Position numbers and translations under genes: made by a program. From a virus (lineage: Duplodnaviria; Caudoviricetes), in IMG/VR virus record IMGVR_UViG_3300037506_000247, positions 1 through 60,606 of that record: a DNA stretch of 60,606 bases; one strand, 5' to 3'. Position 1 is the first letter of the stretch; every line of letters begins with the position of its first letter. The notes below the pieces were generated by a model that saw only the letters and a list, made by a program, of their open reading frames with translations, was not told the DNA's origin and did no database searches. Below are positions 2,974 through 29,793 of this stretch, piece by piece.

Positions 2974-3438
2974 ATGAACGAAACCGATGTCGTCACCACC
3001 GTCGAGGCCCCAGCCGTCAAGCCGGTCAAGACGAGGAAGCCCAAAAAGACGAAATCCAAGCCGGTGGTTGAGCTGCGACTGCCCCAGGTCCGCATCCTGC
3101 GGGCCATTGCCTCGGAGCCGCTGACCCGCGCCGACACTGCCAGGAAAGCCGGGTTCTCCGAGGGATCAGGTACCATGCCGAGGTTCTTGAACGGCTCGAA
3201 GGCCAACGGCGTCAAGAGCATGTTCTCGCTCGGGCTTGTTGAGGACGTGACCGTGGACGTGGCCGGCAAAGAGGAGAGACTGCTCAGAATCACTCCGGCC
3301 GGCAAACGCGCGCTCAGGGCCGAACTCAACGGCTCAACCCGCTTGCCCAAGATGCGCGACCACGACGCCTGTGTCAATCGTCGCTACGGCAAACCCTTGC
3401 GGAAACCTGCCAGTGGGAAGGCCCGCAAGAGCAAGTAG
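2974..3438 (+). CDS. Winged-helix DNA-binding protein (paralog B) with Lys-rich termini
   Basis: AGGAG RBS. LGLVE..LRITPAG wing pattern. Homologous to 2486-2854. Confidence 0.75.
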   Translation: MNETDVVTTVEAPAVKPVKTRKPKKTKSKPVVELRLPQVRILRAIASEPLTRADTARKAGFSEGSGTMPRFLNGSKANGVKSMFSLGLVEDVTVDVAGKEERLLRITPAGKRALRAELNGSTRLPKMRDHDACVNRRYGKPLRKPASGKARKSK

Positions 3439-11849: not shown

Positions 11850-12113
11850 CTACGTCCGGCGGCAACTGTCAACGCCGGCCACGAGGCCGGCCACGAACGC
11901 ATCGCCGCGATTAGTCAATGCCTCTCGGTAGACCGCAGCGAAGATTCGCCGCGCTGTCTCGGCTCCCTCGATCACGGCCAAAGGCTTCGCGCCGCCTGAC
12001 CCGTTCGTCTCATCATAGATGAATCGGACCTCCAGCCAGTCCGGCCGCAGCACGAGACGGTACATCCTCGTCCGCAACTCCCTCACCGAGTGGAGTTTGG
12101 CATCAGCGATCAT
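11850..12113 (-). CDS. Hypothetical protein
   Basis: ATGA overlap with the upstream gene. Confidence 0.6.
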   Translation of the reverse strand: MIADAKLHSVRELRTRMYRLVLRPDWLEVRFIYDETNGSGGAKPLAVIEGAETARRIFAAVYREALTNRGDAFVAGLVAGVDSCRRT

Positions 12114-13249
12114 GGCAACTCCGGGAAGAGATTCTTAACACGCCGCAGCCCGACGGTGGAACCAGTTGCCAAGTGCTCATCGAGGTCGGTGACGCCCACG
12201 CGCGCGTCCATCAACCCGCTGTAGACACCGAAGGGCATGCGGAAGTGGAGGCACGAAGGTCCGGCCCAGTGCTTGCACTTGCTGTCGTTCGTCACCACCT
12301 GCCACCAGTCACACAACTGCTCCAAGATCGGGTCAAGGCATTCGCGCTTGAATCGCTCCACATCTTCGGGCGCGATCTCGACTCTCCAACGCATGAAATA
12401 GTCTTGCGGACTTTCACGGATGTAGCTTGCAACCCGGTCCCAGTATTCATCCTCGGACTCACCGGCCGGGTTTGACTTGCTGGGTTCCCTGCGCTTGATC
12501 GTGCCTTTGCCGCCAGACAGCGGCCGGCGCACCACATTGTAACGCACACCGCCCACCGGGCTCTTGACGCTCGCCTTGAAATCGAAGTCGGACTCCAACA
12601 GCGCTACAACGTACATCATGGTCTGAAGGTCGAACGTCAATTGGCGCTTGATCTGCTGCTCGTCGGGATCGCCCTTGGACTTGTTTTCCTGAAGGTAAAT
12701 TGCGGCTTGCCGCCCCTTGCCGACCAGGTCCACCGAGTCAAACTTGCCGCGCAGTCTGACCGTCCTCCCCGACCGCAGAACGTGAGGTACGGAGAAAGAG
12801 CATTCCTGCAGCAACGGCGTTCGCGCCGTCACGTCAGGGTGCTTCGCCCAGTGGTCAACGTAGAGCGGGAATTGCAGGAGACAGACTCGATACCACTTGT
12901 CGATTTCTTCTCGCTGCATGGGATACTTGGCGCAGAGGGAACGACAATAACTCGTCAGCGCCGACTCCCAGGGCAACGTGGAACTCGCCGGCACAATGAC
13001 TTTCTCCGTGCCTGCCAGCGCTTCTTCGCAGACGTGCCACATGTTCCCGTATTCAATTCGGTGGTTGAACTTCTCGGCCGCTTGAAGGCCGTCTACTACC
13101 AACAGGCGAAAGCGTTCTCGGCAGACCAGGAACTTGCTCAAAAGCGAGAACGTGATGCCATCCTCCTCCGGACCTTTCCAGACGGGGACCTTGGACTTCT
13201 TGACAGACTTGGCGGCGCGGGCGAGCGGCGGGGTTTCGATGACAGGCAT
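12110..13249 (-). CDS. PD-(D/E)XK (Cas4/RecB-like) exonuclease
   Basis: TFSLLSKFLVCRERF, YGNMWH, LRGKFD..ENKS..QTMMY. Start MPVIE. Confidence 0.85.
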   Translation of the reverse strand: MPVIETPPLARAAKSVKKSKVPVWKGPEEDGITFSLLSKFLVCRERFRLLVVDGLQAAEKFNHRIEYGNMWHVCEEALAGTEKVIVPASSTLPWESALTSYCRSLCAKYPMQREEIDKWYRVCLLQFPLYVDHWAKHPDVTARTPLLQECSFSVPHVLRSGRTVRLRGKFDSVDLVGKGRQAAIYLQENKSKGDPDEQQIKRQLTFDLQTMMYVVALLESDFDFKASVKSPVGGVRYNVVRRPLSGGKGTIKRREPSKSNPAGESEDEYWDRVASYIRESPQDYFMRWRVEIAPEDVERFKRECLDPILEQLCDWWQVVTNDSKCKHWAGPSCLHFRMPFGVYSGLMDARVGVTDLDEHLATGSTVGLRRVKNLFPELP

Positions 13250-13273
13250 GGGTTGCTCCTGGGAGACGAGACT

Positions 13274-13827
13274 CTAGAGCTTGGCAAAAGCGCTTGCCAG
13301 CACAACCGTCGCGCACCTGACCATCAAGCGCTGTTGGACGGTGGGGGCGCGGAGGATGGCTGCTGGGTGAACCACGTCGATCACCCGCACGCCGTCGGGG
13401 ACTCGCAAGGACCACCGGTCTTGGGGTTGAGCCAATCCCGCGCCAGCGTGCCGACGCAGACGATCAAGCGCGGATTGGCGATCCGGACGAACTCGGCCAG
13501 GCGCGGCTAGCAGGCGATGATCGCATGACCGGGCGGTTCGACCGTTTTGCCGCCGCCTTCGCGGGGAATGCAGCATACCAAATTCGTGAAGGCCCATGAA
13601 AGTCGAGGCGTCGGCATCGCGTTGTCGATGATCGAGTCCATCAAGTGCCCGGCGGGTCCGCAGAATAGTCGGCCCAGCGCGTCCTCGGACTCTCCGGGCG
13701 ATTCACCCACGAAGAGCGCGTCACAGGGGATCGATCCGCGCGCCAGCATCACGCGCGAGCGATCCTCGCACAGCGGACACTCGCGGCAGTTCCCCCAGCG
13801 CTCGACGTGTTGTTGAAACAGGCTCAT
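13274..13827 (-). pseudogene. Uracil-DNA glycosylase family 4/5, interrupted by a TAG and a frameshift
   Basis: CRECPLC, FVGESPG..EDALGRLFCGPAG, TNLVCCIP, then AC*PRLAEF..PRLIVCVG (TAG 13509-13507). The C-terminal VVHPAAILR motif is in a different frame after about 13420. Confidence 0.85.
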
Positions 13828-14087
13828 CGGCAAGCTTCCTCGATGGCCTCGTCAACCTTCCTGATCAGGTCATCGTCGAGCAGCACGTTGACGGCCGCCC
13901 TGGCGGCCCTGCGCTCGTCCCAATCTAGATGGACTTCCTCAAATTCGACGGCCGCCGGCGGCAATATCTCCATGGCCCAGGCCAAAATCACTACCTGAGC
14001 CATCCCCGGCATCTCGACGATCCTGCCCTCTTTGATGCCGCGGCGAATGGCGCGCATCATATTCCGCAGTTACTCTTCGGTTTTCAT
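13824..14087 (-). CDS. Hypothetical protein; in-frame TAA at codon 6 unless it starts at 14060
   Basis: AAAGGGG RBS then MKTEE*LRNMMRAIR. Confidence 0.55.
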
Positions 14088-14108
14088 CGCATCAACCCCT
14101 TTCATCTT

Positions 14109-14603
14109 TCAAGTCCGATCTAGCCCGCGAACGGTCGCGTGCTTGCGCCGGCAATGCTCCGCGATGAGGATCGCGTCGGCGACCGCCAGCGTGATCGCCT
14201 CGCCTGGAAACAGCTTTTGCGCGTGAGCCTTGAGCCGATTTTTGAACTCCCCTTTCTTCTCACCCTTCTTGCGCGGCGCGATGCCCAGCGCCTTCTGCCA
14301 AGTCCTCGGCGTGACCTCTTCAAACGGCACGCCCAACGATACTAAGAACCCCTTCAACAGTCCGGTGTTGACGCCGAACTTGAACATAGTGCTGCCTGGA
14401 TTGCCCCTGTCGCCCACGTAACCGGTGTTGCGCTCGATCACCGCAAAGAAAAGCGGCTCGGCCGACAGCCAGCGCCAAATGTCACTCTCGGTCGGTGGCA
14501 TCGCCACGAAATCCAGCTCGTCGCCGGCGATCACGGCCAGTCCTCCCGACGCGCCCGGGTCGATGCCCAAGCACACACGCGCTTCGTTCTCAAGCATTGG
14601 CAT
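14109..14603 (-). CDS. RuvC-like Holliday junction resolvase
   Basis: LGIDPGASGGLA, AVIE, MFKFG, VTPRTWQK, ADAILIA. Start MPMLE. Confidence 0.88.
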   Translation of the reverse strand: MPMLENEARVCLGIDPGASGGLAVIAGDELDFVAMPPTESDIWRWLSAEPLFFAVIERNTGYVGDRGNPGSTMFKFGVNTGLLKGFLVSLGVPFEEVTPRTWQKALGIAPRKKGEKKGEFKNRLKAHAQKLFPGEAITLAVADAILIAEHCRRKHATVRGLDRT

Positions 14604-14805
14604 AGCGCCGCTCCTTTCTCTTGACGTTGATGACCACCGACTCGCCGCGGTCCTCGATTTCCAGGCGGACCGGTTTGCCGGTTGCAGCATTCCGCGCTTG
14701 CTGAATGATCGAGCTGGTCGGGCAACCGTAGTCACGCCCGCGGCGCAAGTGCAATCGGGCGCCAACCTTCAACCGCTTCCGCCAGTGGTAGATGTTGGGA
14801 TTCAT
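14590..14805 (-). CDS. Small basic hypothetical protein
   Basis: First gene of the leftward operon. Overlaps the resolvase start. Confidence 0.6.
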   Translation of the reverse strand: MNPNIYHWRKRLKVGARLHLRRGRDYGCPTSSIIQQARNAATGKPVRLEIEDRGESVVINVKRKERRYANA

Positions 14806-14905
14806 ACTCACCCCTGTCCCGAGCCGCGACAACAATTATAACGGTTGCCGGCGATCCTCGGCGGGCCGACACGGCGTCGATCCGTCTTTCCTGCGGATTT
14901 CGTCG

Positions 14906-14930
14906 TAAGTCCTTTACTGACAGCGACTTA
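14906..14930. promoter_or_regulatory. Inverted repeat TAAGTC-N13-GACTTA
   Basis: 6-bp arms in the divergent intergenic region. Confidence 0.35.
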
Positions 14931-14959
14931 AAAAATCCGAGAAAATCCGGGTTTCGGGC

Positions 14960-14989
14960 TTTACGCGGCCTCGTGAACTATTATAATAG
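14960..14989 (+). promoter_or_regulatory. Promoter with palindromic -10 (CTATTATAATAG)
   Basis: TTTACG-N16-TATAAT. Shares TATTATAATAG with 2909-2919. Confidence 0.6.
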
Positions 14990-15085
14990 ATAGCGTAAGC
15001 AAGTGATTTGGCAGCGAGAAACAACCTAGAGGCCAGTCCAGGCGAGTGACCTAGCGGCCGACGGGGACTAGATGAGGAAATAACC

Positions 15086-15295
15086 ATGTCAGAGACAATT
15101 TTCATTTACAACGAAAACTGCGTCATGGCCGGCCGCGCCGTCCCACGGCGCGAATTGGACCGGTACGAAGACCCTCGCGACGGCGGCGACTGGTCGGCTT
15201 ATGAGCTGTCCGAGGAGTCGGCACACGAATGGGAGCAGCGTTCCAGCCCGTTCGCCGTCCGTATCGCCAAGACAATCCGCGAAGCCTTGGCCTAA
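15086..15295 (+). CDS. Hypothetical early protein
   Basis: GAGGA RBS. First gene after the promoter. Confidence 0.7.
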   Translation: MSETIFIYNENCVMAGRAVPRRELDRYEDPRDGGDWSAYELSEESAHEWEQRSSPFAVRIAKTIREALA

Positions 15296-15373
15296 CTATA
15301 CCCCCACCAGCCAATGTACCCCCATCCGCCGCCCGGTGAGTGACCGGGACGGCGGACGGGGCTAAATGAGGAG

Positions 15374-15643
15374 ATGGACATGTGGACATCAGCTGAATTC
15401 CCGCACGAATGCAGGCGCCTGGCGTCAATAGCCTTCGACCGCTATGGGCGGGACATTGCACCTCTATATCTCGTCGGCATCAAACGTGACGGCCGCTGGA
15501 TTACGGCCATTGTTTCCTACGAGCTCGCCGATGGCGAGAGCTACATAATTGCGACCCATATTCCGCGCAATCTTGCCCTGGCACGTTTGACGGACTGGTT
15601 TGAAACTCATCTGCGGAGCGAGCCGGTTCTGAGTCCAGAGTGA
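15374..15643 (+). CDS. Hypothetical early protein
   Basis: GAGGAG RBS. Confidence 0.7.
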   Translation: MDMWTSAEFPHECRRLASIAFDRYGRDIAPLYLVGIKRDGRWITAIVSYELADGESYIIATHIPRNLALARLTDWFETHLRSEPVLSPE

Positions 15644-15700
15644 GCCCACGGGCCGCAGCGCACCGCGGGGAGTCGCGCTAATCAGCGGCGTCGAACGGAA

Positions 15701-15754
15701 CCTGTCCGCGGCTTCTTGGCCGCGCCGACGAGGCCCCGGAAGGGCCGAAACAGG
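15701..15754 (+). ncRNA. Type III hammerhead-like ribozyme (U4C core variant)
   Basis: CCTG-TC / stem I CGCGGC-TTCTTG-GCCGCG / core CCGACGA / stem II GGCCC-CGGAA-GGGCC / GAAA / CAGG. All three stems pair perfectly, with a GUC cleavage triplet. Confidence 0.75.
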
Positions 15755-15763
15755 AGCAACCCG

Positions 15764-16036
15764 ATGCTAGTAGGTTCACCCAAGCGAACGATCCAGTGCT
15801 GCTCGCAGGTCAACAGCGGCCGATGGTGCCAAGAGACTTACGAGACGGCCAGCCGGTTCGCCGGTCGCCGCGCCAAGTACCTGCGAGAGCGCGGGTATCA
15901 AGTCACGGTCAGCACGATGGGATCGCAAGTCACCCCACTCGGATTGATCAAGCTGACGCTCGTGGACATCCGCCCCGGAGTTCACGAAGGCACCTTTGAC
16001 CTTCCCGAAGTCATGAAGGTCGAATGGCCGCGCTAA
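15764..16036 (+). CDS. Hypothetical early protein
   Basis: AGGAG RBS then MLVGSPKRTIQ. Confidence 0.7.
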   Translation: MLVGSPKRTIQCCSQVNSGRWCQETYETASRFAGRRAKYLRERGYQVTVSTMGSQVTPLGLIKLTLVDIRPGVHEGTFDLPEVMKVEWPR

Positions 16037-16121
16037 GGACTCCCGGTGACGCCCCACTCATCCGAGGAGGGGCGACTCCGGCAGCCCTGCACAACGCAGG
16101 AGCCGAAAACAGGAGCAACCC

Positions 16122-16709
16122 ATGCCTGTCATCGAGGGGCGAGCCGCCAAGCCCTCGGTCGCTGATCGCCTGGCTGCGGTCGCCCGCCGGGAGGGCGTCC
16201 TCGCCTGCGATCTGCCCGGCCTCCACGACTGGCCCTGCAAGGCTGTCGTAGCCGCACTGCGGAAGGCCGGCATCGAGCGGTCCGACATGACAACAGGCAT
16301 CTGCCGCCAGGCAGACCGGATCAACCAGGAACGGACGGCAGCCATGATCGACCGGTTCAACACCCAATTCGAGTGGGACACACGTGGCGGGTTCTGGGTT
16401 GTGCCGGGCGACCCCGCCCGTGACCCAGCGCTGAATCGCGAGCTCGCGGAACGCCTGGTCGCCGACAAGCGGTTGAGCAGGTCCGCCCGCGAGCGGCTTG
16501 CCCCGATCCTGACCCCAGCGCCGAGCGCGGAACCATCCGCGCCGACGCAACCCGGCAAACCCCGAAAGTCCGACGAGCAACGGCTGCTCGAAGCGCAAAG
16601 GCGCGACGAGCGCCGCACCAGCGTTCTCAACCGCCGTGAAAAAAAGGCCCTCGTGGCCAAGATCAAGGCCCTACCCATGCGGCCTCCATCACAAAGGGGC
16701 GCTCCGTGA
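16122..16709 (+). CDS. Hypothetical protein
   Basis: AGGAGCAACCCATG leader. Start MPVIE. Confidence 0.7.
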   Translation: MPVIEGRAAKPSVADRLAAVARREGVLACDLPGLHDWPCKAVVAALRKAGIERSDMTTGICRQADRINQERTAAMIDRFNTQFEWDTRGGFWVVPGDPARDPALNRELAERLVADKRLSRSARERLAPILTPAPSAEPSAPTQPGKPRKSDEQRLLEAQRRDERRTSVLNRREKKALVAKIKALPMRPPSQRGAP

Positions 16710-16918
16710 GCTACCGTTGCGACATCTGCGTTCGGCACGTGAGACATTGCCAGCCTCGGCTCCTGCACGTTGTCAAACGCGACGACGGGCGGATCGAGCG
16801 TGAGCTGGCCGTTTGCCCTGAGTGCCAGGGCGAACTCGCTCGCGGCGTTCACCACCAAACCCTCATGAGCCTGGCGCGTCGCCGGGTTCAAAACCTCAAC
16901 CTGCAACCAGGGAGTTGA
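16706..16918 (+). CDS. Small zinc-ribbon-like protein
   Basis: CDIC..CPEC. GTGA overlap with the upstream gene. Confidence 0.55.
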   Translation: MSYRCDICVRHVRHCQPRLLHVVKRDDGRIERELAVCPECQGELARGVHHQTLMSLARRRVQNLNLQPGS

Positions 16919-16920
16919 CA

Positions 16921-18543
16921 ATGCCTGCGCTTGAGAACGTCCCCCGCGTCACCGAGTCCAAGGCCTCCGCGCCGAAACCGCAACCGCAGAAGCCCGCCAT
17001 CAAGTACCCCGACCTCGTGGTTGGGATCGACGACGGCAACGGCGGCGTCGAACTGCTCCCCCTGGCCACGGTCCGGATCACCGGACCGATGGCCGCCAAA
17101 CTGCTCGAACTCGAAACTGAATCCGAATACGCCCTGCGCTGCGCCAGGGAGTACGGACTGGCGTCGACCGAGAACGAAGTGCGTGAGTTGGGCATCAAGC
17201 TCCAGTTCCATACCTTCGTCGAGCCGATCACCGGCGAGAAAGTGATTTGCTGGAACAACCTCCACAATCGACCGTTCAAAATGCCGGCCGCGCTGGCGTA
17301 CAAGCAGGAAATCCTGACGTTCAACTGGGCTGGCCCCACGACTTGCCCCGGCGAAACCGTCAATGCGGAACCCATTACGATTTCACGCACGGAGCAGATC
17401 GTGTCTGGCCAGAACCGCCTCGGCGCGGCGTGGATGGCCTGGATTGAGTGGAAGGAAAAGTACGATGACCACAAGCGCGTGTGGCCCAGAGAGAAGTTTC
17501 CGGAAGGACCGTACCTCGAGACACTGGTCATCTACGGTGTGTCCGACGCGCAGAAGGTCATTCAGACGGTGGACACCGGGGAGAAGCGGAGCGAGTCCGA
17601 CGCCTTCTTCACCGGCAACACGGTCGAGCGCGTCTTCGGTAAAGACAAGGCGGACACTCTCACGCGCAAGGCCAAGGAAGAAGTTGCGCGAATGCTGGGG
17701 CACGCCGTGGATTTTTGCTGGGTCAGAATGGGCTGGAACGACCGGCTCATCAAGACCAACAGGACCGCGCAAGAGTTCCTCGACAACTTCCCGACGATTC
17801 ACAAGGCCGTCAGGACGATCTTCGACGTGAACCAGTCCCGACAGCTCTCGCTCATGTACGTCAACGCCGGCACCTGCGCTGGCGCGCTGTTTCTCATGGC
17901 CCAGGGCAAAACCAACCCACAGAAGCGCGTGGACTCGGAGAAGGGCCTCGACATGACCTTGCTCGCCAAGGCTGAGGAATTCTGGCGGCTGTTGTCGAAG
18001 AAAGAGGGGTTTTTCAACTTGGTCAAGAACACGCTGGGTAAAATCACTTCGGTCGAGGGCGAGGAGCTCAACGGCCGCGCCGTCGAGAAGTTCTGCGTCA
18101 TTGCCAAGGCCTGGCGCATCTGGCTCGACGGCGGCAAGCTCACACCTGCCGACAAGGACAACCCGGCTGCGCGGGAACTGGCGCTCCAGACCTACGAGGA
18201 CGAGGACGGCAACCGACACCTCGTGGACCCACCCGATTTTGGCGGCATCGACCGCGGCCCCAAGGTCCGCGAGCCGGAGGTCGACGATGCTCCCGACGAG
18301 CAGGAAGTCGAGGAGGAGAAGCGGAAGGCCGAGACCCGGCGCTCCGAGGAGCTGAGGCAGATCGTCGAAGAGTCCCCGGCCCAGGAGTTAGCGCGGCGGC
18401 AGCAGGCCGACATCAAAGCCCAGAATGCGGCGCTCTTGAGGCAGAAGGCCGAGGCCAAGAAGAACGGTCAGCTCAAACCCAGGACCCCGGCACTCGCGAC
18501 CGACAAGCAGCCGCGGCCGGCGAAAGCGCCGGTCAAGAAGTAG
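16921..18543 (+). CDS. ParB/Srx-like domain protein
   Basis: NNLHNRPF..Y..W..NAEPITIS..SGQNRL resembles the phage ParB-like N..NR..W..GEPI..DGQHRL pattern. Start MPALE. Confidence 0.65.
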   Translation: MPALENVPRVTESKASAPKPQPQKPAIKYPDLVVGIDDGNGGVELLPLATVRITGPMAAKLLELETESEYALRCAREYGLASTENEVRELGIKLQFHTFVEPITGEKVICWNNLHNRPFKMPAALAYKQEILTFNWAGPTTCPGETVNAEPITISRTEQIVSGQNRLGAAWMAWIEWKEKYDDHKRVWPREKFPEGPYLETLVIYGVSDAQKVIQTVDTGEKRSESDAFFTGNTVERVFGKDKADTLTRKAKEEVARMLGHAVDFCWVRMGWNDRLIKTNRTAQEFLDNFPTIHKAVRTIFDVNQSRQLSLMYVNAGTCAGALFLMAQGKTNPQKRVDSEKGLDMTLLAKAEEFWRLLSKKEGFFNLVKNTLGKITSVEGEELNGRAVEKFCVIAKAWRIWLDGGKLTPADKDNPAARELALQTYEDEDGNRHLVDPPDFGGIDRGPKVREPEVDDAPDEQEVEEEKRKAETRRSEELRQIVEESPAQELARRQQADIKAQNAALLRQKAEAKKNGQLKPRTPALATDKQPRPAKAPVKK

Positions 18544-18606
18544 TAGCGCAGCAAACCAGGAACGAAGAAGAGTTTCATCAGAACTCACAACAGACAGGAG
18601 CAATCC

Positions 18607-20913
18607 ATGAAGAAGAAGACCCTCAAGCAGCAGGCTCTGGAGTTCCTCCAGGCACACGGTTGGGCCGTCGACACGACCACGCGCGTCAGCAGGTACGTGG
18701 TCCTGTCTAAGCCCGGATGCGACCACCACTACTATCTCGGCAACGCCGGCGCGGTTCGCCGCGGTCGCACTGTGACAAGCAGCATTCCGGTCAGGCTGAA
18801 AACCGACAAGCCGATCACGGAAAAGCCAGGTTCCGGCGATCGGTGCAAGCACGGAGTAAGGCTAGAAGACAAATGCAACAGGTGCCTGACCGGAATCGCC
18901 GAACCTCGACGGGAGACTGAGCAACGCCCGGACCCTTCGTTTGCTGTTGGCAATGTGGAACCGTCATCAATGACGACGACCGGTGCCCCGTCTGCGACCA
19001 TTGCTGACAATCCGGCGACTTCGGCCGAGGCACCAACCACCGGCCTGCTCCGCGCCGCGGCAAAACAGGTTGCCAGTGCCAGCGCCGAAGACGAAGAAGT
19101 CGCGGGCTACAGACCGACCGACGAGCAGCGCGCGGTCCTGCGCGAGGCGACTCGCGATGGTCTGCGCTGCCTGGTCCTGCCGGCCGGGGCCGGCGCCGGC
19201 AAAACCTCGACGCTCAAGATGCTGGAAGAAACGCTGCCAGGTCGCGGACAGTACACGGCCTTCAACCGTTCGCTGGTCAACGAGAGCAAGGCCAAGTTCC
19301 GGAAGGCGCGTTGCTCAACCACGCACAGCCTGGCGTTCGGCACCGTGGGCAAGGCGTTCGCGCATCGACTCAACGGACCGCGCGTCCGCTCCGAGCAAGT
19401 CGCCTCGATGCTGGGGATCAGCGACCTCGAAGTGACTGTGGGGGCCGACCCCGACGGCCAACCCACGCTGCGCAAGCTGACTGCGGCCTGGCTCGCCGGG
19501 CAGGTGATGGTCGCGGTCCGTCGCTTCTGCCAGAGCGCGGACAAGCGCATCAGCCGCGAGCACATTAAGCACGTGGACGGCATCGATCCGCCGGACAGTC
19601 GCGCCAATAGCGAGATCGTCAAGAGCTACCTCCTGCCGTTCGCGGAGAAAGCCTGGACCGACTTGTCGTCGACGACCGGCCGGCTACCGTTCTCCCACGA
19701 CGTGTACGTCAAGCTCTGGCAACTCGGCGAGGGTCCGAATAAGCCGATGATTCCGAGCGACTACATCCTGCTCGACGAGGCTCAAGACACTGCACCCGTG
19801 TTTCTCGACGTACTTCGGCAACAGACGCACGCCTTTCTGATTTTTGTGGGCGACAGCAACCAGGCCATCTACGAATGGCGCGGAGCGGTTGACGCCATGA
19901 AGGCGTTCCCCGACGCGCCGCGACGGATACTCAGTCAGTCCTTCCGGTTCGGCCAGCGGATCGCCGATGTGGCCAACTCGATTTTGGCAGGCTTAGAAGA
20001 ACCGACTGACCTAATCCTCAAGGGTCTGAAGGCGATTCCGTCATGCGTGTTTCAGCGCGAGCAGCTACCGAACCCCAAGTGCGTCTTGACGCGCACAAAC
20101 GCCGCCGCGGTCGCCGCGGTCATGGACGCCCAGAATCGAGGCAAGCGCACGCACTTGATCGCCTCGGTGGACGAAGTGCTGTCCTTCGTCCGCGCAGCCC
20201 GCGACCTCCAGCGCGGCAAGCCCACCGCCCACCCCGACCTGGGCTGCTTCAACCGGTGGTCCGACGTGGTGGAGTACAGCAAGACCGACGAGGGGCAGGA
20301 GCTGCGCCTCTGGGTCAAGCTGATCGATGAGCTCGGTGTCGAGCGGATCATCTCAGCGCTGGAAAACCAAGTGCCCGAGGAGTCGGCCGACCTCGTGGTT
20401 TGCACGGCACACAAGAGCAAGGGGCGCGAGTGGACCAGCGTCAAGCTTGCTGGTGACTTCCCGCCGGCTTCCAAAATGTCCGATTCCGATCGCCGGCTGC
20501 TCTACGTCGCGGCCACGCGCGCCAAGCGCGTGCTCGACATCAGTGACTGTCCACCCTTCCACCCGTTCCGCGACCGCGAGACGGGCGAGGAGACCGAAGG
20601 CATCAGCATCGCCTTCACCGGCGAGATGCCGACCCTCAACGAGGCGCTGGGCGGCATCGGGGAAGAGAAGAAGGAACCCTCGGTCGAACAGCCGAAATCG
20701 GTCGCCAATGTCGACGGATCGACGAATGGCCGCGCGAAATCTCAAGAGTTCTCGTGGACCAATTACAACGGCAAATGGCATGTGAGTGGTCCGCCGGGCC
20801 ACGTGGACGAGACCGTCCGGGTGCGGCGCAAGAACGGCTCGACTTCGACCGAGCGCTTGGGGAAGCTCGTCAAAGAGTTCGCGGAGCGGTGCATCTACGA
20901 TGTCGGGCGCTGA
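18607..20913 (+). CDS. UvrD/Rep-like superfamily 1 helicase with N- and C-terminal extensions
   Basis: AGAGAGKTST, LLDEAQD, GDSNQAIYEWRGA, LSQSFRF, TAHKSKGREW, LYVAATRAK. Confidence 0.92.
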   Translation: MKKKTLKQQALEFLQAHGWAVDTTTRVSRYVVLSKPGCDHHYYLGNAGAVRRGRTVTSSIPVRLKTDKPITEKPGSGDRCKHGVRLEDKCNRCLTGIAEPRRETEQRPDPSFAVGNVEPSSMTTTGAPSATIADNPATSAEAPTTGLLRAAAKQVASASAEDEEVAGYRPTDEQRAVLREATRDGLRCLVLPAGAGAGKTSTLKMLEETLPGRGQYTAFNRSLVNESKAKFRKARCSTTHSLAFGTVGKAFAHRLNGPRVRSEQVASMLGISDLEVTVGADPDGQPTLRKLTAAWLAGQVMVAVRRFCQSADKRISREHIKHVDGIDPPDSRANSEIVKSYLLPFAEKAWTDLSSTTGRLPFSHDVYVKLWQLGEGPNKPMIPSDYILLDEAQDTAPVFLDVLRQQTHAFLIFVGDSNQAIYEWRGAVDAMKAFPDAPRRILSQSFRFGQRIADVANSILAGLEEPTDLILKGLKAIPSCVFQREQLPNPKCVLTRTNAAAVAAVMDAQNRGKRTHLIASVDEVLSFVRAARDLQRGKPTAHPDLGCFNRWSDVVEYSKTDEGQELRLWVKLIDELGVERIISALENQVPEESADLVVCTAHKSKGREWTSVKLAGDFPPASKMSDSDRRLLYVAATRAKRVLDISDCPPFHPFRDRETGEETEGISIAFTGEMPTLNEALGGIGEEKKEPSVEQPKSVANVDGSTNGRAKSQEFSWTNYNGKWHVSGPPGHVDETVRVRRKNGSTSTERLGKLVKEFAERCIYDVGR

Positions 20914-20974
20914 AAGTGATCGAGCGGGGCCGCGCATCATTCACGCGGATTTCATTCAACTTGAGGAGTGACCC

Positions 20975-21256
20975 ATGCCCAGAACGACTTGGCAAGAGCA
21001 AGATTCCTTCGACCGTCACGAATGGGCGAGGGCGGCGGAGTGCGAAGGCGACACACCCGCGTCACGATTTTCCGCCAGGACTGCCGCTCTCCGGCAGAAG
21101 CCCCTGGCAGACAAGATCAACGAGCTGCGCCGGCTCGGCATCAACATCGCCGAACAGGGCGTTCATTCTTCCCCGTGCCGAGTCTGCGCATTTGCGTGGC
21201 GCTATTCGGCTTTCCCCGACCGCTGCCTCTACTGCGAGGCGATGAACGAAGAGTGA
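20975..21256 (+). CDS. Hypothetical protein with C-terminal Cys cluster
   Basis: GAGGAG RBS. CRVC..CLYC. Confidence 0.65.
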   Translation: MPRTTWQEQDSFDRHEWARAAECEGDTPASRFSARTAALRQKPLADKINELRRLGINIAEQGVHSSPCRVCAFAWRYSAFPDRCLYCEAMNEE

Positions 21257-21264
21257 CTCGCCAA

Positions 21265-21302
21265 CCCCGCTTCGGTCCTTCGGGATTAGGGCGGGGCTTT
21301 TT
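21265..21302 (+). terminator. Intrinsic terminator between convergent operons
   Basis: CCCCGC..TCC-TTCG-GGA..GCGGGG followed by CTTTTT. Confidence 0.65.
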
Positions 21303-22096
21303 CATTTCAACTTCTCTGCGTCGAACCTGTTCATCCCTGCCGCCTCTCTGCGCCGCCGTTCCTCCCAGATCGTCTGACCACTCATTTTCCGTCGAGCCGC
21401 CGCCTCCGGGTGGGTCGTGCCGTCCAGCCGCGGCGTTGCCCGGCCGAACCAATTCTGCCCGGCCGGGCCGAGATGCAAAACCTCGAACGGAGGGCGCACC
21501 TTGCGCTCGCGCGGCCACTTCGCTTGGAAGAAACTGTCCGCGCCGCCGGCGTGCGTCCAATTGACGTCGTGCCAGGGCGGATCGCCGAGGACTGGGTCCG
21601 AGGCGTGGAAGATCTGCGAGTAGCCGGCCCACTCGTTGACGTTGCGGTGGATCGGGTAATGACTCCACTCGTTTTCTAGTGGCGGCAGTTGTTGCGGCAT
21701 CGTCAAGTCAACCATCATCCGGCGCAGCGGCGTGCAAAGCTGGCCCCGATGCACGAGGCACTGCCGGCTCTCCGCGCCGATCCAGAGGCTCTCGCCGAAC
21801 GGCCGGATGTTGACCGACTTCGGCCAGAGCACGTCGGCATCCATCAGGCACAGCCACCCCTCGCGCCCGAACCAGTCCAGCCCGTCCTCCAGCGCGGCCC
21901 ACTTGTTGAACTTCGCCCCGCGAGCATAGAACAAGTCGGTCATGTGAATCGAGCAGCCGTGGGCGCGGGCAACATCCTCGGTCGCCTGGTCCGCCGTTGA
22001 GGTCACCACGCAAACCTCAGAGAAGTGGTGCCGATTGTATGGCATTGTGACGCTCAAGATGTCCGAATAATCGACACAGACCATCATGGCGCGCAT
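21302..22096 (-). CDS. Glycosyltransferase (GT-A fold)
   Basis: VCVDYSDIL, FNKWAAL..WLCLMDADVLWP (DxD), GYSQIFH, GGADSFF. Confidence 0.8.
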   Translation of the reverse strand: MRAMMVCVDYSDILSVTMPYNRHHFSEVCVVTSTADQATEDVARAHGCSIHMTDLFYARGAKFNKWAALEDGLDWFGREGWLCLMDADVLWPKSVNIRPFGESLWIGAESRQCLVHRGQLCTPLRRMMVDLTMPQQLPPLENEWSHYPIHRNVNEWAGYSQIFHASDPVLGDPPWHDVNWTHAGGADSFFQAKWPRERKVRPPFEVLHLGPAGQNWFGRATPRLDGTTHPEAAARRKMSGQTIWEERRRREAAGMNRFDAEKLK

Positions 22097-22097
22097 G

Positions 22098-22316
22098 TCA
22101 ATCCTCATCTTCGGGCCAGCCTGGCCAAGACTCGCCGCATGTCGGGTGAAACAGAGACAGGGCGTCAAGAACTTTGACTGCCTTCCTGACTTGCGCTTCA
22201 CTGCCGCACAAGACTGGATCGAGGATGCGCCGCAACCTAGTGATGGCCTCTTCGTGCTTGCGCAAGATAGAATCGCGGTCGCAACAATACGTTGAGGTCT
22301 TGACTGGCTTCGTCAT
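22098..22316 (-). CDS. Hypothetical protein
   Basis: GGGAG RBS. ATGA overlap. Confidence 0.55.
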   Translation of the reverse strand: MTKPVKTSTYCCDRDSILRKHEEAITRLRRILDPVLCGSEAQVRKAVKVLDALSLFHPTCGESWPGWPEDED

Positions 22317-23113
22317 TTGTTGCTCCCTTCCAGCCATACAACTCCGACCCCGCAGCTCCGCTCGCGCCAGTGACGCAGCCAACCCTCGTGAGCGTTTGCG
22401 GGCGGGATGCCGCGCGCCTCGCGTTTCAGCGCGGCTTCGGCGTCCGAAGTATCCACGATCAGCTTCGAGCATCGGCCCGCGGCGACCGCGGACCAGGCTT
22501 GCTGCATCGGTGAGCCGGCCTCGTTCACGTCGTGAAAGAACTCAACGCCGTTTGGAGCCATCAGCGGCAGGTACGCCAGGTGGTCGGCGAAGAATGCGCT
22601 CTTGTCGCCGTCGACGAACAACACGTCGATCCGGTCTTCACCCAGGAAGTTCCAGACCATCGTCCGCGCTACTTGGTCGCGACTGGACCGGTCGAGCCAG
22701 AGGAATTCGATCCGGGGGAAAGCGCGCTCAAACAGTTCGGCGTAAGGCAGGCCGCGCACTTCGCAGGCGATCACCTTTTCGACGGTCGGCAGGCACATGC
22801 ACCAGTGGTATAACCCGCCGCCTTTATCCGCGCCAATTTCCATGACCACCTTTGGGCCGCCAGCTTTTCCGGAACCGGCGCACTCCGGGCAATCCCCACG
22901 CCATGGCGGGCCGCACGAACATGATTCCTTGTCGACGTTCCTGGCGACCTCGATCATCCGGCGCATCTCGGCCTGGCGCTGAAGTGGGAAGAACAGATCG
23001 GTCTCAAACACCTCCGGATACAAGTCCTGCCCCGGATTCAATTGCGGATGGACCTCGGCGAAGAATCGCTCGACGCAAGGCATCATCTCCGCTGGAAACG
23101 GTGCGTCCATCAT
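22313..23113 (-). CDS. Class I SAM-dependent methyltransferase (Methyltransf_24-like)
   Basis: VMEIGADKGG, IDVLFVDGDK, FFHDV. Confidence 0.8.
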   Translation of the reverse strand: MMDAPFPAEMMPCVERFFAEVHPQLNPGQDLYPEVFETDLFFPLQRQAEMRRMIEVARNVDKESCSCGPPWRGDCPECAGSGKAGGPKVVMEIGADKGGGLYHWCMCLPTVEKVIACEVRGLPYAELFERAFPRIEFLWLDRSSRDQVARTMVWNFLGEDRIDVLFVDGDKSAFFADHLAYLPLMAPNGVEFFHDVNEAGSPMQQAWSAVAAGRCSKLIVDTSDAEAALKREARGIPPANAHEGWLRHWRERSCGVGVVWLEGSNK

Positions 23114-23163
23114 CTTTTCCTTGTGACCGGTCTCTTGGCGCTCGTGATTGAGTCGATGGTGAC

Positions 23164-24219
23164 TCACTTCAAGGCGTTTTGCAGGTACCGGGTCGTCCTC
23201 TGGAGTCGGCCGACCTCCAACTGCTCCAGGCGCTTGACGACTTGCACCAGCCTGTCTCGACGCTTCGGGAAGGCGACGGCGGCATGGGTCGCGCTCGTCT
23301 GTTCGCTGCCCTTCTCGGACTGGGCCAGTTCGCCGTACCCTCTCAACGGCACACCGCAGTCGAAGCAGTGTTTGCGAACCTGCTCGACGAACGACTGCAT
23401 CGGCAACTCCCACCATTTCCGGCCCGTGAAATGTTCGACGGTTGGATCGATTCCGGTGTCGAGATAGCCCGGTTCGTCCTGGTGGAGCATCGACTGCGCC
23501 CCGGCAACCTCGCAAAACCAAGCGCGGAGCTGGCCGCGGAAAACACCGATCATGGCACTCCAGTGCTGGTTGATGTCGCAGCCGGAGATCAGCTCCCAAA
23601 TTCGAGATTCGTCAACAACCCGACCGACTCCGTCGCAACGAGGGCATGTCAGAGCACCCAACCGCTCGGCAATCTTACCGCCACCCCCGCACGCGTCGCA
23701 AATCCTCCTCAACACGTCTTTCATCGCCACGAACACCGGCGAGTGGCGCGAATCCGTCGTCAACCCGACCGGTCCGCACTCCGGCCAACCTTCCTTGAAC
23801 ATGTCATGGGCTTTGCGGTCGAGGTGGACGTTGAGGTTCGAGACGAACGGGTTGAAGGTCTCGCGCATTATCCGCGCCTTTTCGATGGTCATCGGGTTGT
23901 TGGACCAAATGCCGCGCTGCTCGATCGGCACTTCCTCGCGCATGACGGCGCACAACTCTTCAAACCGCGGATGAACCGCCGGATTGCCGCCGAACATGCC
24001 CACGACTCCGAAGTAACCCCGGAGCGAGCGGCAGGCGTTGCGAAATTGCGCGACCGAGATCATGCCGGGATTGCCGGCGTAGTTCGATGCCTGAGTGCAG
24101 TTGAAGCAAGCCTTGTCGCAAGCGCGGGTGACCCATATCTGGATCACGCCTTCACGGTACTTGCCCGGCCGCCGCGTCCCCGGCGCAACCATCTCGGCAA
24201 GGCATTCTTGTTCGGTCAT
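23164..24219 (-). CDS. Radical SAM protein
   Basis: VTRACDKACFNC (CxxxCxxC), FGGNPAVHP, C-terminal Cys residues. Confidence 0.88.
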   Translation of the reverse strand: MTEQECLAEMVAPGTRRPGKYREGVIQIWVTRACDKACFNCTQASNYAGNPGMISVAQFRNACRSLRGYFGVVGMFGGNPAVHPRFEELCAVMREEVPIEQRGIWSNNPMTIEKARIMRETFNPFVSNLNVHLDRKAHDMFKEGWPECGPVGLTTDSRHSPVFVAMKDVLRRICDACGGGGKIAERLGALTCPRCDGVGRVVDESRIWELISGCDINQHWSAMIGVFRGQLRAWFCEVAGAQSMLHQDEPGYLDTGIDPTVEHFTGRKWWELPMQSFVEQVRKHCFDCGVPLRGYGELAQSEKGSEQTSATHAAVAFPKRRDRLVQVVKRLEQLEVGRLQRTTRYLQNALK

Positions 24220-24803
24220 GGGTCGATCCTCGATGTCTTTTCCATCCAGTAGGACCACGGAAGCCCGCCCTCTTCGATGATCAACTGTACGTCAACCCTC
24301 TCCCGCGCAGCGAACTCCAACACCGCGGCCTGGACTTCGCCGGCCCAGGAATGCGACTCGCCCGGCTGCACGAAGTCGTGACCGGCGAGCAACCCCCCCG
24401 GCCTGACCTTCTCCCACCAGCCGGCCAGGTCGTGCGCGACGTGCTCACGACGGTGGTCGCCGTCGATGAACACGAAGTCGAGCGATCCGTTGATGAAATT
24501 CTTCAGCGCGTTCTCCGACGTGATCCTCAAGAGCCTGGCGCGGTCTCCGTGTCTCCGCAGCCGAGTCCTGGCCTCGAAGAAATGGTCGCCTTCACCCCAG
24601 AGCAGCCGCTGTTGCTCCTCGTAGCCTGGCAGACACTCCCAGGGATCAACGCAGTGGAGCGCCCGCCCTTTCCAAGTTGACAGCAGAGCGTTGGCGAATT
24701 CTCCTCGGTGAGTGCCGACCTCGACAGCCTCGCCGATCAACCCAAGCGAGTTGAGGTAATCGCCGAACTGCCCGCGCGTTGACAAAGGAGCGCACCTAAG
24801 CAC
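24216..24803 (-). CDS. Class I SAM-dependent methyltransferase (Methyltransf_24-like)
   Basis: VEVGTHRGE, CVDPW, LDFVFIDGDH, GGLLAGHDF. Confidence 0.88.
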   Translation of the reverse strand: MLRCAPLSTRGQFGDYLNSLGLIGEAVEVGTHRGEFANALLSTWKGRALHCVDPWECLPGYEEQQRLLWGEGDHFFEARTRLRRHGDRARLLRITSENALKNFINGSLDFVFIDGDHRREHVAHDLAGWWEKVRPGGLLAGHDFVQPGESHSWAGEVQAAVLEFAARERVDVQLIIEEGGLPWSYWMEKTSRIDP

Positions 24804-25830
24804 CGTAGAATCTCCTCACGTTCTCGATCTCCCTGGCGAGCAGCCTGCCTTGCTCACGGAATTCGTAGCGCTCCCTGGCCAGGAACGCCATCTGCTCCTG
24901 AAAGTTTGCGTCCCAACTCGCATCCAGCGAGGACAGCAGATCGCAGAGCTGCGGAAAGCCGATGTCGTCGGCGACTCGGACTAGGTTGGCGTCGATCAGC
25001 GGCACGTGCTCGCGCAAGTTCGTGACCACCCGGCAGCCGCAGGCTGTTGCCTCCATGATCTTGCGCAGCGCATAGCCGTGGATGGATGCCGTGCAGATTG
25101 CCACCTTGTAGCGGCTCAACGTCTGCAGATAATCCGGCGTCCAGCACCTGGTCCGGCCGTAGCCGGGATGGGGCAACACATCAACCAGTTTCGAGATCGG
25201 CGTGTTGGGCCGCTTGGCCTCCATGGCGACTCGTGTCCGCAGCGGGTAGGCGCCCCCCAGCGCGCCGGAGACGATGCACCCCTTCCGCCCCCGGACCGAG
25301 AACTCCGGCACTGCCGCCTTGTCTGTTGTGTGCCAGGTCCGGACCAGGTGCTGCCGCCGGACGAACGGCGCGAGCGCGGCCACCACGTCGGGATCGTAGT
25401 AGACAATCCAAGCGTGGAGACCGGTTTCTTCGGCGAACTCGCGATGCAGATCGCGGTCGCTCTGCGCGTCCTTGAGCACGCCGATCTTGAACACGTCGTC
25501 CCGGTCCCTCAGCGCCCCCATGTTCCGAAAGCGCTCGCGCTGATCGAAGGTCCGTGGTCCGCCCGCCGTCTTGCCGATCCACTCGCGCTTGTCCTGAATA
25601 ACCACGACGGACGGATCGAACTTGAGCAACTCAGTGACGTCGGTGATGCTCGTGGCAGATTGCGCGCCGAGCCGTGTCGTCAGTCCGTGCCCGGCCAATC
25701 CGTACCCGGCGCTCTCCAGCCCTCGGAACAATTGCCAGCCTTCGTCGGTCGTGTGCCGGCTCATCGACTCGACGGCCAGCCCGACTTTGGAGCCGTCGGC
25801 GCGGAACTCGTAGAGAGGCGCTGAGATCAT
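24796..25830 (-). CDS. Glycosyltransferase (GT-B, CgeB-like)
   Basis: YPLR, YLQTLSRYKVAI..LRKIMEATACGC. Confidence 0.78.
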   Translation of the reverse strand: MISAPLYEFRADGSKVGLAVESMSRHTTDEGWQLFRGLESAGYGLAGHGLTTRLGAQSATSITDVTELLKFDPSVVVIQDKREWIGKTAGGPRTFDQRERFRNMGALRDRDDVFKIGVLKDAQSDRDLHREFAEETGLHAWIVYYDPDVVAALAPFVRRQHLVRTWHTTDKAAVPEFSVRGRKGCIVSGALGGAYPLRTRVAMEAKRPNTPISKLVDVLPHPGYGRTRCWTPDYLQTLSRYKVAICTASIHGYALRKIMEATACGCRVVTNLREHVPLIDANLVRVADDIGFPQLCDLLSSLDASWDANFQEQMAFLARERYEFREQGRLLAREIENVRRFYGA

Positions 25831-26672
25831 GACTTGTTCCTGTCCCAATCCCTGTTCCGCCTGTAGGCCGCCTCGATCACCGGACAGTTCGTCAGGAACG
25901 CCCCGTCTGTGAGGCATGAGGCCAATCGCCTCTTGTCGAAGCATCCCATCAGCGTCATCAAGTCCTTCGGCAAGCACCGGCCGCCGAACCCGCGCTTGCC
26001 GTCAGGCCCCGGCACCTTGGTCCAGCTCGTCCCGATCCGGCCGTCGGACAAGATGCCTTCGAGCACGCGCTGCCAATCCAACTCCAGCACGTCGGCCAGG
26101 GACCGGAACTCGTTGAACAGCGACACCTTGACCGCAGCGAAGGCATTGGTCATCAGCTTGACGGCCTCGGACTCGTCGGAAGTCATGCACAGAATCGGGA
26201 CACCCGGAAACCTTTCGGAGCAAGCATGTCTGACGTCCTTGCCGCACCCGCTCAGACCCAACAATGGATCATCCATGTTCGCTTTCCACTTGAACAACGG
26301 ATCGCCGATGATATTCCGCGCTGGAAACTGGACGTCGGTGAAAGCGCAGCGCTCGGTCAGAAACTCCGGCGAGTGGACGAGATTGGTCAAACCGTGCTCC
26401 TTCGCAAGCCGTCGCGTGGTACCGACGGCACACGTGGACTTGACGACGAAATTGACCTCGCGCTTGTCAATCGGAACCAGCGACCCGAAGAAGCCATCCA
26501 GAGAAGCCTCCGGCAGGCACACGAACACGAGGTCGCAGGCCAGCGCTTCGCCGAGAAAGTGGGTCCGGCGTTCTGGCTTCTCGTCATAAACCCGCACTTC
26601 ATCCGTGTGCTCCAACCAACAGCGGGTCACGGCCTGACCAACAACGCCCGCACCGATGACGCCGATTTTCAT
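25827..26672 (-). CDS. UDP-glucose/GDP-mannose dehydrogenase family protein
   Basis: MKIGVIGAGVVG, VKST..GTT, SPEFL, EAVKL..N, GFGGRCLPKD. Confidence 0.92.
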   Translation of the reverse strand: MKIGVIGAGVVGQAVTRCWLEHTDEVRVYDEKPERRTHFLGEALACDLVFVCLPEASLDGFFGSLVPIDKREVNFVVKSTCAVGTTRRLAKEHGLTNLVHSPEFLTERCAFTDVQFPARNIIGDPLFKWKANMDDPLLGLSGCGKDVRHACSERFPGVPILCMTSDESEAVKLMTNAFAAVKVSLFNEFRSLADVLELDWQRVLEGILSDGRIGTSWTKVPGPDGKRGFGGRCLPKDLMTLMGCFDKRRLASCLTDGAFLTNCPVIEAAYRRNRDWDRNKS

Positions 26673-26863
26673 GTCTGCTCCTGAAAGCGCCTCCGGCAGG
26701 CGCGGTCCCGAGACCTGGTGGATGCTGAGGTGCCTCGCCGCCGGAGGATCGAAGTCATCGATTTGCGCAACCCACCAGGCCGACGACCCCATCATAACCG
26801 ATTTGCCGCCGAGCCTCTTCGAGTTGAAACGAAAAAAGCAGAAAAACTCAAGGCCGCCCCCCT

Positions 26864-26885
26864 CCCCACCCCTTCAGGGGTGGGG
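26864..26885. repeat. Perfect hairpin CCCCACCCCT-TC-AGGGGTGGGG in non-coding gap
   Basis: 10-bp inverted repeat. Confidence 0.6.
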
Positions 26886-27121
26886 TAAAGAGGCCATGGC
26901 GGGACAACCGTTTTGGCGCTTTCGCGCTTACTGACCGGTCATCTTTGGTGGTGCGGCAATCGTTGCCTGGGACCCGGACGCGGGGGAATTGGCAGGATCA
27001 ACCTTCCGTGCCCACTACCTGCTCGTTGCCGGGAAGACCACCAGGTCTCTCTGCTTCTCGTGTTCACCAATCGACAACCCCGATAACCGGATAAACCCAG
27101 TTATCGGGTTTTCAGACGGGA

Positions 27122-28291
27122 TCATCTTAACCGGTTTCTGACCAAAAGCTCCAAGGCGTCGAACCCCTCCCCCCGGAACGTAGCAGCCGCTCGGTAGCGC
27201 CTGGCCCCCATCGACGAGTCATGGCCCGTGTGCTCGACCAGCGAGGGTTGATGGACGAACTCGGACCAACCGGCCAAGTTCATTGCCGTGACGATGGCTC
27301 CGTCGATCCGCACGTTGCCCAACAAGCGCGGACCACCGTCGGCATAGGTCCGGGGCTTGCCGTCCGTGCTGCCTTTATGGTCGGGCCGCACGTCCGACAC
27401 TTTCTTAAGCATGTGGAACGACGACAGGCAGGCGCTCAGACCCTCGCGGGTGAAGCAGAGGGCGGCCGCTCCGTAGCCGATTTGAAGCGTCGGATCGTTG
27501 TTGTTGGGGTGGCCGCGGTGCCAACCGTCGGGCTTGCCCTTGACTGCCAGCTCGTTCGGGCCGTGCGTGTGGAGATTGAGGTAGCCGCGCTCCGGCCAAG
27601 GAACCGTGTCGAGATAAACCCGGAGGTTGCGGCAGGCCGCGATGTCATCCTGGAAGACGGCGAACCGGCCGGCCATGGGGTTGCGGATCAACAGTTCCCA
27701 GGCAGACAAGAGCCAATTGCCGACCGTCCTGATGCGCGGCCAACGAGCGGTGACTTCCAGCCCGTCGAAAGCGTCGATCCAGCCAGGCACGAACTCGGCT
27801 TTCAGACCATCCACGAACAAGCGCGGCCGGTCGAAGCCGGCGGCCCGGAGGGAGGCGAGTGAGGCCAGGAGCAGACCGCTCGTCCTCCGCTCCGGCACCG
27901 TGGTCACGCCGACGGCCCACGAGCGCGGGTCGGGCTTCGACGGCCGAGCTTGAGCTGCCGAAGCCAGCGCCGCGCGAGGGTCGGCCGTCGCTTGCTTGGG
28001 CACTTTGAGCCGCACGTTGCCCTTGCAGCCGGTGCAAGGTACAAGGTCCACGCCAGCGCGCTGCTGGCGTCCGCCGCGCGTGACCGCAGATCGCATCAGA
28101 TCGCTCTTGGTCGACGCCCCGGCGTAACCGGGGTGGCCTCTGGCCCACTGGTTCCGCGCCAGCCAATCCTCAACCGCGCCCTCGGTGATCCCCCACGCAG
28201 CCTGGTGCTCCGGCGAGCGCACGGCCAACAGACAGAGCACGCAGCCTTCGCCGAGGCAGAACGGGGTTCGGTGGAGGAAGTCTTGGATCAT
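27122..28291 (-). CDS. Glycosyltransferase (GT-A) with Cys-containing N-terminal extension
   Basis: WAVGVTTVPERR, AVFQDDI, GAAALCF, PSLVEHTG. Confidence 0.72.
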   Translation of the reverse strand: MIQDFLHRTPFCLGEGCVLCLLAVRSPEHQAAWGITEGAVEDWLARNQWARGHPGYAGASTKSDLMRSAVTRGGRQQRAGVDLVPCTGCKGNVRLKVPKQATADPRAALASAAQARPSKPDPRSWAVGVTTVPERRTSGLLLASLASLRAAGFDRPRLFVDGLKAEFVPGWIDAFDGLEVTARWPRIRTVGNWLLSAWELLIRNPMAGRFAVFQDDIAACRNLRVYLDTVPWPERGYLNLHTHGPNELAVKGKPDGWHRGHPNNNDPTLQIGYGAAALCFTREGLSACLSSFHMLKKVSDVRPDHKGSTDGKPRTYADGGPRLLGNVRIDGAIVTAMNLAGWSEFVHQPSLVEHTGHDSSMGARRYRAAATFRGEGFDALELLVRNRLR

Positions 28292-28292
28292 G

Positions 28293-29792: not shown

Positions 29793-29793
29793 C

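Follow-up and report, generated by a model that had tools for sequence, protein, structure and literature searches.

A type III hammerhead with a U4-to-C core change in the leader of a conserved phage gene

In a rightward phage operon, the leader of the third small gene contains an element that is, by its architecture and by its descent as read from the sequence, a genuine type III hammerhead, its activity being a separate matter. With moderate confidence, it is interpreted here as a cistron leader that would cleave the phage's polycistronic mRNA immediately ahead of the ribosome-binding site of the gene that follows, which encodes a conserved phage protein of 90 amino acids. For this leader we infer co-transcription, cutting, and effects on stability and translation.

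Genomic setting and architecture of the element

The window (the whole 60,606-base stretch of DNA that was analysed) is an IMG/VR record of an uncultured freshwater phage, estimated to be 82% complete and with a G+C content of 63.5%. No relatives of the phage were found among cultured phages, by DNA or by protein. Among the sequencing runs listed for this DNA, none is recorded as RNA; X1, probably the source assembly, is identical to the window, X2 supplied short identical pieces outside the element, and the window's hammerhead copy is carried by one genome only. Genes to the left of approximately 14,800 run along the minus strand, and a block of small genes on the plus strand starts at 15086. 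The genes divergent from the ribozyme operon include a RuvC-like Holliday junction resolvase (14109–14765, minus strand; PHROG 1770, E 4.2e-20) and a short ORF of the UDG superfamily (13507–13833, minus strand; Pfam E 2.9e-7). Searches of IMG/VR returned no relatives of a neighbouring 540-aa protein or of the 89-aa ORF immediately upstream of the element.

The hammerhead occupies, in the sense orientation, the 120-nt gap between that 89-aa ORF (15374–15643) and the ATG of the 90-aa gene at 15764. A consensus scan detected promoter-like sites ahead of the plus-strand block and none between 15643 and 15764. The sole plus-strand terminator-like site of the terminator scan (15491–15508) lies inside the upstream ORF, and the same scan of the plus strand gave none in the 120-nt gap. 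A reading of the element's hairpins as a terminator was rejected because a U-run is absent after either hairpin. The end of the upstream ORF is also covered by a weak SECIS_1-like match (15578–15644; 25.2 bits, E 0.43), which is probably due to chance.

Within the gap, positions 15701–15754 of the plus strand present a complete type III layout, with three perfect stems, a GUC, a GAAA and the core strand CCGACGA. The preliminary description of this DNA had reported the same three-stem topology, with a cut after 15706, and each of its parts was recovered on re-examination. The features of the locus are as follows.

14917–14987, plus strand: two promoter-like sites ahead of the plus-strand block (consensus matches only)
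15086 (start), plus strand: first ORF of the plus-strand block (from the ORF list)
15374–15643, plus strand: upstream ORF of 89 aa, an orphan with no relatives, on the same strand as the 90-aa gene
15701–15705, plus strand: 5' strand of stem III, CCUGU, pairing with 15750–15754; U15705 is U16.1
15706, plus strand: C17, the cleavage-site letter of GUC, with the predicted cut at 15706/15707 (sequence and Rfam alignment)
15707–15724, plus strand: stem-loop I, CGCGGC (15707–15712) with GCCGCG (15719–15724) (sequence, fold and descriptor)
15725–15731, plus strand: core strand CCGACGA (consensus CUGANGA), with C15726 in place of U4 (sequence, Rfam and descriptor)
15732–15746, plus strand: stem-loop II, GGCCC (15732–15736) with GGGCC (15742–15746), loop CGGAA (sequence and fold)
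15747–15749, plus strand: core strand G12 A13 A14 (sequence and Rfam alignment)
15750–15754, plus strand: 3' strand of stem III, ACAGG; A15750 is A15.1 (sequence, fold and descriptor)
15752–15756, plus strand: Shine-Dalgarno AGGAG of the 90-aa gene, its AGG within stem III (sequence)
15764–16036, plus strand: 90-aa gene, a conserved phage protein with no assigned function (homologue clusters, Pfam/PHROG and structure model)

The stems are 6 (7), 5 and 5 bp long and consist of Watson-Crick pairs throughout, apart from an optional wobble in stem I. That stem has 6 Watson-Crick pairs and, optionally, the wobble U15713–G15718; its loop is UUCUUG, or UCUU when the U-G pair closes it. The G10.1–C11.1 pair at the base of stem II is present (G15732 with C15746), and the innermost pair of stem III is A15.1–U16.1. 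Twelve of the 13 conserved core positions match the hammerhead consensus, the only departure being C15726 at position 4. In bacterial and phage hammerheads, loops I and II are often in tertiary contact through a pseudoknot; here, four base pairs could form between UUCU of loop I and GGAA of loop II, and 2821 of 5000 loop shuffles did equally well. The overlap of stem III with the ribosome-binding site, asserted in the preliminary description, was confirmed: the 3' strand of the stem takes in three of the five Shine-Dalgarno letters (AGG), and AGGAG is separated from the ATG at 15764 by 7 nt.

The search with hammerhead models that the preliminary description had suggested gave a divided answer. 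A full-length match to Rfam RF00008 (Hammerhead_3) was obtained at 15699–15756, spanning model positions 1–54 of 54, with 33.1 bits and E 1.3e-5 in a scan of 261 bases; the score is below the RF00008 gathering score of 48.5 bits, and the match was absent from larger scans (the window at the gathering threshold, the window at E ≤ 1, and 12000–30000 at E ≤ 5). A profile search of the phage's own record with RF00008 scored 10 candidates and returned 0 matches, and the Rfam scans gave no further ribozyme, whatever the class, within the window. When a structural descriptor was applied to both strands of the window, the single site recovered was the element at 15701–15754. A descriptor covering types I, II and III added three weak matches in the window, which were treated as noise because their key stems are 2–4 bp long and the core is mismatched. 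The window was also simulated 400 times with a first-order Markov model; an equally good motif never arose, and 4 of the 400 contained any motif with at least 4 bp per stem and at most one core mismatch.

On their own, the 56 nt have the hammerhead as their predicted fold of lowest energy (−27.4 kcal/mol). When short flanks were included (15695–15770), a competing fold was up to 2.5 kcal/mol better than the hammerhead, and the minimum-energy folds from 15680, 15644 or 15600 to 15800 all contained it. The folding energies themselves are unremarkable, with z-scores of −1.99 for 76 nt and 0.15 for 161 nt.

Ribozymes beside the 90-aa gene family

The 90-aa protein belongs to a family of 33 clusters, the window's own included, and the other 32 are 55–76% identical to the window protein. 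No Pfam or PHROG family was found for it. Members are so far confined to phage and metagenome contigs, with none found in prokaryote genomes. Q23, E24, Y26 and E27 are invariant, and the family shares a motif resembling WCQETYET. A confident AlphaFold model of the protein (pLDDT 91.5) contains two β-hairpins and one helix, and it has no PDB fold match at E ≤ 0.001.

Protein alignment was used to fetch 32 related loci, 7 viral and 25 metagenomic. Rfam scans and the descriptor identified ribozymes flanking the gene in 11 of these loci, which represent about six distinct lineages. They are hammerheads of types I, II or III, or twisters, and the class differs between phages. Hammerhead_II matches of 47.7–58.5 bits (cut-off 37) were obtained in L010–12, L021–23, L024 and L033, twice in the case of L011. 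L030 and L011/L033 have canonical type III hammerheads, and a canonical type I hammerhead stands right after the gene in L025. No ribozyme is found beside the gene in the other 21 loci, so the gene does not need one.

Over the window and the related loci together, the end of the ribozyme lies 7–28 nt 5' of a credible start codon in 16 of 18 instances, and in these 16 the Shine-Dalgarno sequence either falls between ribozyme and start or overlaps the ribozyme. One of the other two instances is cut off by the end of its contig, and the second has a doubtful start call (L025). It is on this placement that the element in the window is read as a cistron-leader processing module. Related phages carry ribozymes of several classes, sense-oriented and near the next start; the window itself has one copy only. 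The preliminary description is thus borne out in that the element is of hammerhead type and lies, sense-oriented, in a phage intergenic gap, and the placement of a ribozyme directly before a Shine-Dalgarno sequence and start codon recurs in relatives.

Three of these loci have further features. The type I hammerhead of L025 (986–1071) begins in the last codons of the gene, so that its stem I shares letters with the coding region and with the stop codon. Two Twister-P5 ribozymes stand in the hammerheads' place in L027 (1744–1806 and 2643–2705; 44.8 and 42.6 bits; cut-off 37.6), and the first has a 3' strand that overlaps the GGGAG of the next gene. L001, on a contig shared with L006, is a low-GC relative without ribozymes. 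It carries a repeat of approximately 45 nt (AACGGCCACAGCGCA..GGGCGCA.AGGC.ATAAG..) at 2780–2822 and 3231–3275, before the ribosome-binding sites of two genes that stand either side of the homologous gene. A weak RsmY-like match (20.4 bits) was its only match, and the repeat may represent another kind of leader element, standing where other relatives have a ribozyme.

The closest comparison is with L030, where a canonical type III hammerhead (1061–1117, 44.7 bits) ends 21 nt upstream of the start codon of the orthologue (ATG 1138). This canonical copy is also under the RF00008 cut-off, which implies that the cut-off is strict for this lineage. The two hammerheads have 84% of alignment columns in common. 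All four stem pairs that differ between them are compensatory, with two in stem III, one in stem I and one in stem II. Of the cells in the alignment, 97.2% are paired, the one exception being the pair added at the outer end of stem III. In the control for compensatory change, 40 of 500 shuffles were as good and slid registers gave 0; the shuffle control is weak because only two sequences could be compared. The Shine-Dalgarno sequence of L030 lies 4 nt beyond stem III and does not overlap it.

A second comparison is provided by L126, which was retrieved by a pattern scan and has a stem II that is the same as, or near-identical to, that of the window. In its type III copy, the whole GAGGAG is inside an 8-bp stem III. 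Five canonical hammerheads, one of type III and four of type II, are present at 117–2351 of this IMG/VR locus, each 7–28 nt before a small gene, and the initiation regions of these genes (GAGGAGACAGACATG) are almost identical. The relatives are the strongest support for the element being genuine.

The core change and competing readings

U4 is kept in all 11 credible hammerheads of the fetched loci, and C4 is unique to the window among the 12 compared. A canonical-core descriptor match in L035, the twelfth in the loci, looks like chance and was set aside. No C4 hammerhead was found in the 1.09 Mb of fetched loci. The search for others used the pattern GGCCNCGCYGANGAGNCCC in IMG/VR, which matched at least 118 stretches, a sample too small and biased to refute a recurrent C4 variant. 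Hammerhead folds were absent (0 of 85) from the C4 matches listed. All 85 of these, with 32 of the 33 U4 matches listed, were put down to chance, most plausibly GC-rich coding DNA; the one genuine canonical hammerhead among the matches listed is L126, which has U4.

The original paper on a U4C variant is reportedly that of Ambros and Flores (1998). U4C is described as considerably lowering hammerhead activity in vitro (Perreault et al. 2011, PMC3088659), and the same article, citing another paper, describes a U4C viroid variant as active enough in vivo for infectivity. For a type III hammerhead, PMC9901934 reports that co-transcriptional activity was low whenever a single letter of the CUGA turn was mutated; the exception was one double mutant with a compensatory exchange of the C:G pair. 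Given the published reduction of activity in U4C, cutting by the window copy is uncertain. The change from U4 to C would most likely slow the reaction. The window copy may cut slowly or may be a very recent relic, and the perfect stems fit either.

The leading alternative to a working cistron leader is that the element is an inactivated relic, an inherited hammerhead that would have lost a useful rate through the recent change of U4 to C and would persist as GC-rich leader hairpins, either neutral or mRNA-stabilising. We consider this possible, although on the unlikely side. It accords with the isolation of C4 among the 12 hammerheads (the window copy and 11 credible canonical ones), with the low activity reported for U-turn single mutants (PMC9901934) and for U4C in vitro (PMC3088659), and with the 21 of 32 relatives that manage without a ribozyme here; the perfection of every stem is consistent with a very recent change. 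Against it, a natural U4C variant is reported to work in vivo (PMC3088659), and no other part of the element has decayed.

The preliminary description had gone further and proposed a cleavage-gated translation switch or timer, in which the ribosome-binding site would stay masked by stem III until the RNA cut itself, with a slow C4 core providing the delay. This proposal fared poorly and appears improbable. Several observations do point towards it. In addition to the enclosure of AGG within stem III, the four distinct type III copies have a Shine-Dalgarno sequence that starts at −5, −2, +1 and +5 from where stem III ends (−5 in L126, +1 in L011/L033, +5 in L030). Synthetic hammerhead and twister designs are reported to work in E. 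coli, the twister ones with effects of 5-fold to about 100-fold (PMC5052635). In long contexts, the modelled accessibility of the AUG also rises, from 0.05–0.18 in the uncut RNA to about 0.4 in the cut RNA. However, the mask amounts to three Shine-Dalgarno letters in a 5-bp helix, and the modelled accessibility of AGGAG hardly shifts (0.25–0.50 uncut versus 0.29–0.36 cut). The copy at the same place in L030 has no stem III overlap at all. In the minimum-energy folds, 15685–15693 pairs with 15762–15771 over the AUG, but this extended helix was rejected as evidence because the flank duplex is no better than shuffles, which matched it in 196 of 1000 cases for the window and 207 of 1000 for L030. 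A timing role likewise drew no support. A literature search for a natural phage hammerhead that masks a ribosome-binding site found none, which is not proof of absence. The most elaborate version, in which the C4 core would be a selected slow cutter and stem III, perhaps with the AUG helix, would delay translation of the 90-aa protein as a protein-free timer in an early operon, is very doubtful.

A chance resemblance, in which two GC-rich hairpins of a 63.5% G+C genome happen to have hammerhead-like flanking letters, can be given hardly any weight: the score under the Rfam cut-off, the one core mismatch that had to be tolerated, the very many windows covered by the first-stage scan and the random occurrence in GC-rich coding DNA of a 19-letter core-plus-stem pattern (117 non-hammerheads among the 118 matches listed) are outweighed by the absence of an equally good motif from the 400 simulations, by the intergenic, sense-oriented position directly 5' of a ribosome-binding site, and by the true ribozymes that orthologous genes carry at this position, with stems that differ by compensatory changes.

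Proposed role and relation to known systems

In the preferred reading, as a cistron leader, the operon would be transcribed as a single RNA from a promoter near 14917–14987. Stem-loops I and II would fold on emergence, stem III would then close the three-way junction, and the RNA would cut itself after C15706, so that the conserved 90-aa gene would be parted from the cistrons ahead of it. The downstream mRNA would carry a 5'-OH, followed by the stable hairpin of stem I. Its ribosome-binding site would lie 45 nt downstream of the newly made 5' end and would have lost its pairing with the released 5' strand, and this freeing of the ribosome site would be a modest side effect at most. Such a cistron-leader processing module would be a natural counterpart of the synthetic ribozyme insulator. 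RiboJ, a ribozyme insulator, is likewise placed directly 5' of a ribosome-binding site. Several results count against the cistron-leader reading: U4 is a conserved core letter that all 11 credible hammerheads of the fetched loci keep, published U4C and CUGA-turn mutants have lowered activity, the Rfam score is under the cut-off and the match is lost in larger scans, the competing fold with short flanks is 2.5 kcal/mol better, and 21 of the 32 related loci have no ribozyme.

Prophage hammerheads have been described as flanking single genes, and it was suggested that they may process long transcripts of the phage into mRNAs of gene length (PMC3088659). The element resembles the type III hammerheads of phages and prophages treated there (RF00008; PMC3088659) in its three-way junction, closed stems I and II, GUC, GAAA and G10.1–C11.1 pair, and also in being intergenic, sense-oriented and beside small phage genes, with relatives that have several ribozymes flanking single genes. 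It differs from them in its C4, in its score of 33.1 bits (below 48.5) and in being a single copy in a 60.6-kb record. Closer in kind are the U4C viroid variant and the A6C hammerhead of phage Bcep176 described in PMC3088659, each with one core change in an intact scaffold, and the latter intergenic like the window copy. Activity was measured for these variants and, as that article presents it, was low in vitro with the viroid still infectious, whereas the window copy is known from its sequence.

[quoted passage not shown] In the designs described there, the whole site is held in a long stem, in contrast to three letters in 5 bp in the window, where no ligand control is evident. Cutting by hammerheads in the 5' UTRs of RNA viruses is reported to be needed for translation (PMC13725137), and these elements are similar in that a viral leader ribozyme is linked to the next reading frame. 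According to that source, these are type I hammerheads of RNA genomes in a eukaryotic, cap-independent setting, whereas the window derives from a bacterial DNA phage with a Shine-Dalgarno start.

Taken together, these results describe an ordinary member of a class of element recognised since 2011, in which one core letter is changed in an uncommon way. A 2019 review described most genomically encoded ribozymes as functional orphans and stated that transcript processing needs more work (PMC6765202). The role of many bacterial and phage hammerheads is largely unsettled, and this locus adds a further ribozyme directly before a ribosome-binding site. The 90-aa family, flanked by all three hammerhead types or by twisters, offers a convenient set for testing cistron insulation, and the natural U4C copy, set beside its canonical relatives at the same place, provides a ready comparison of active and weakened forms.
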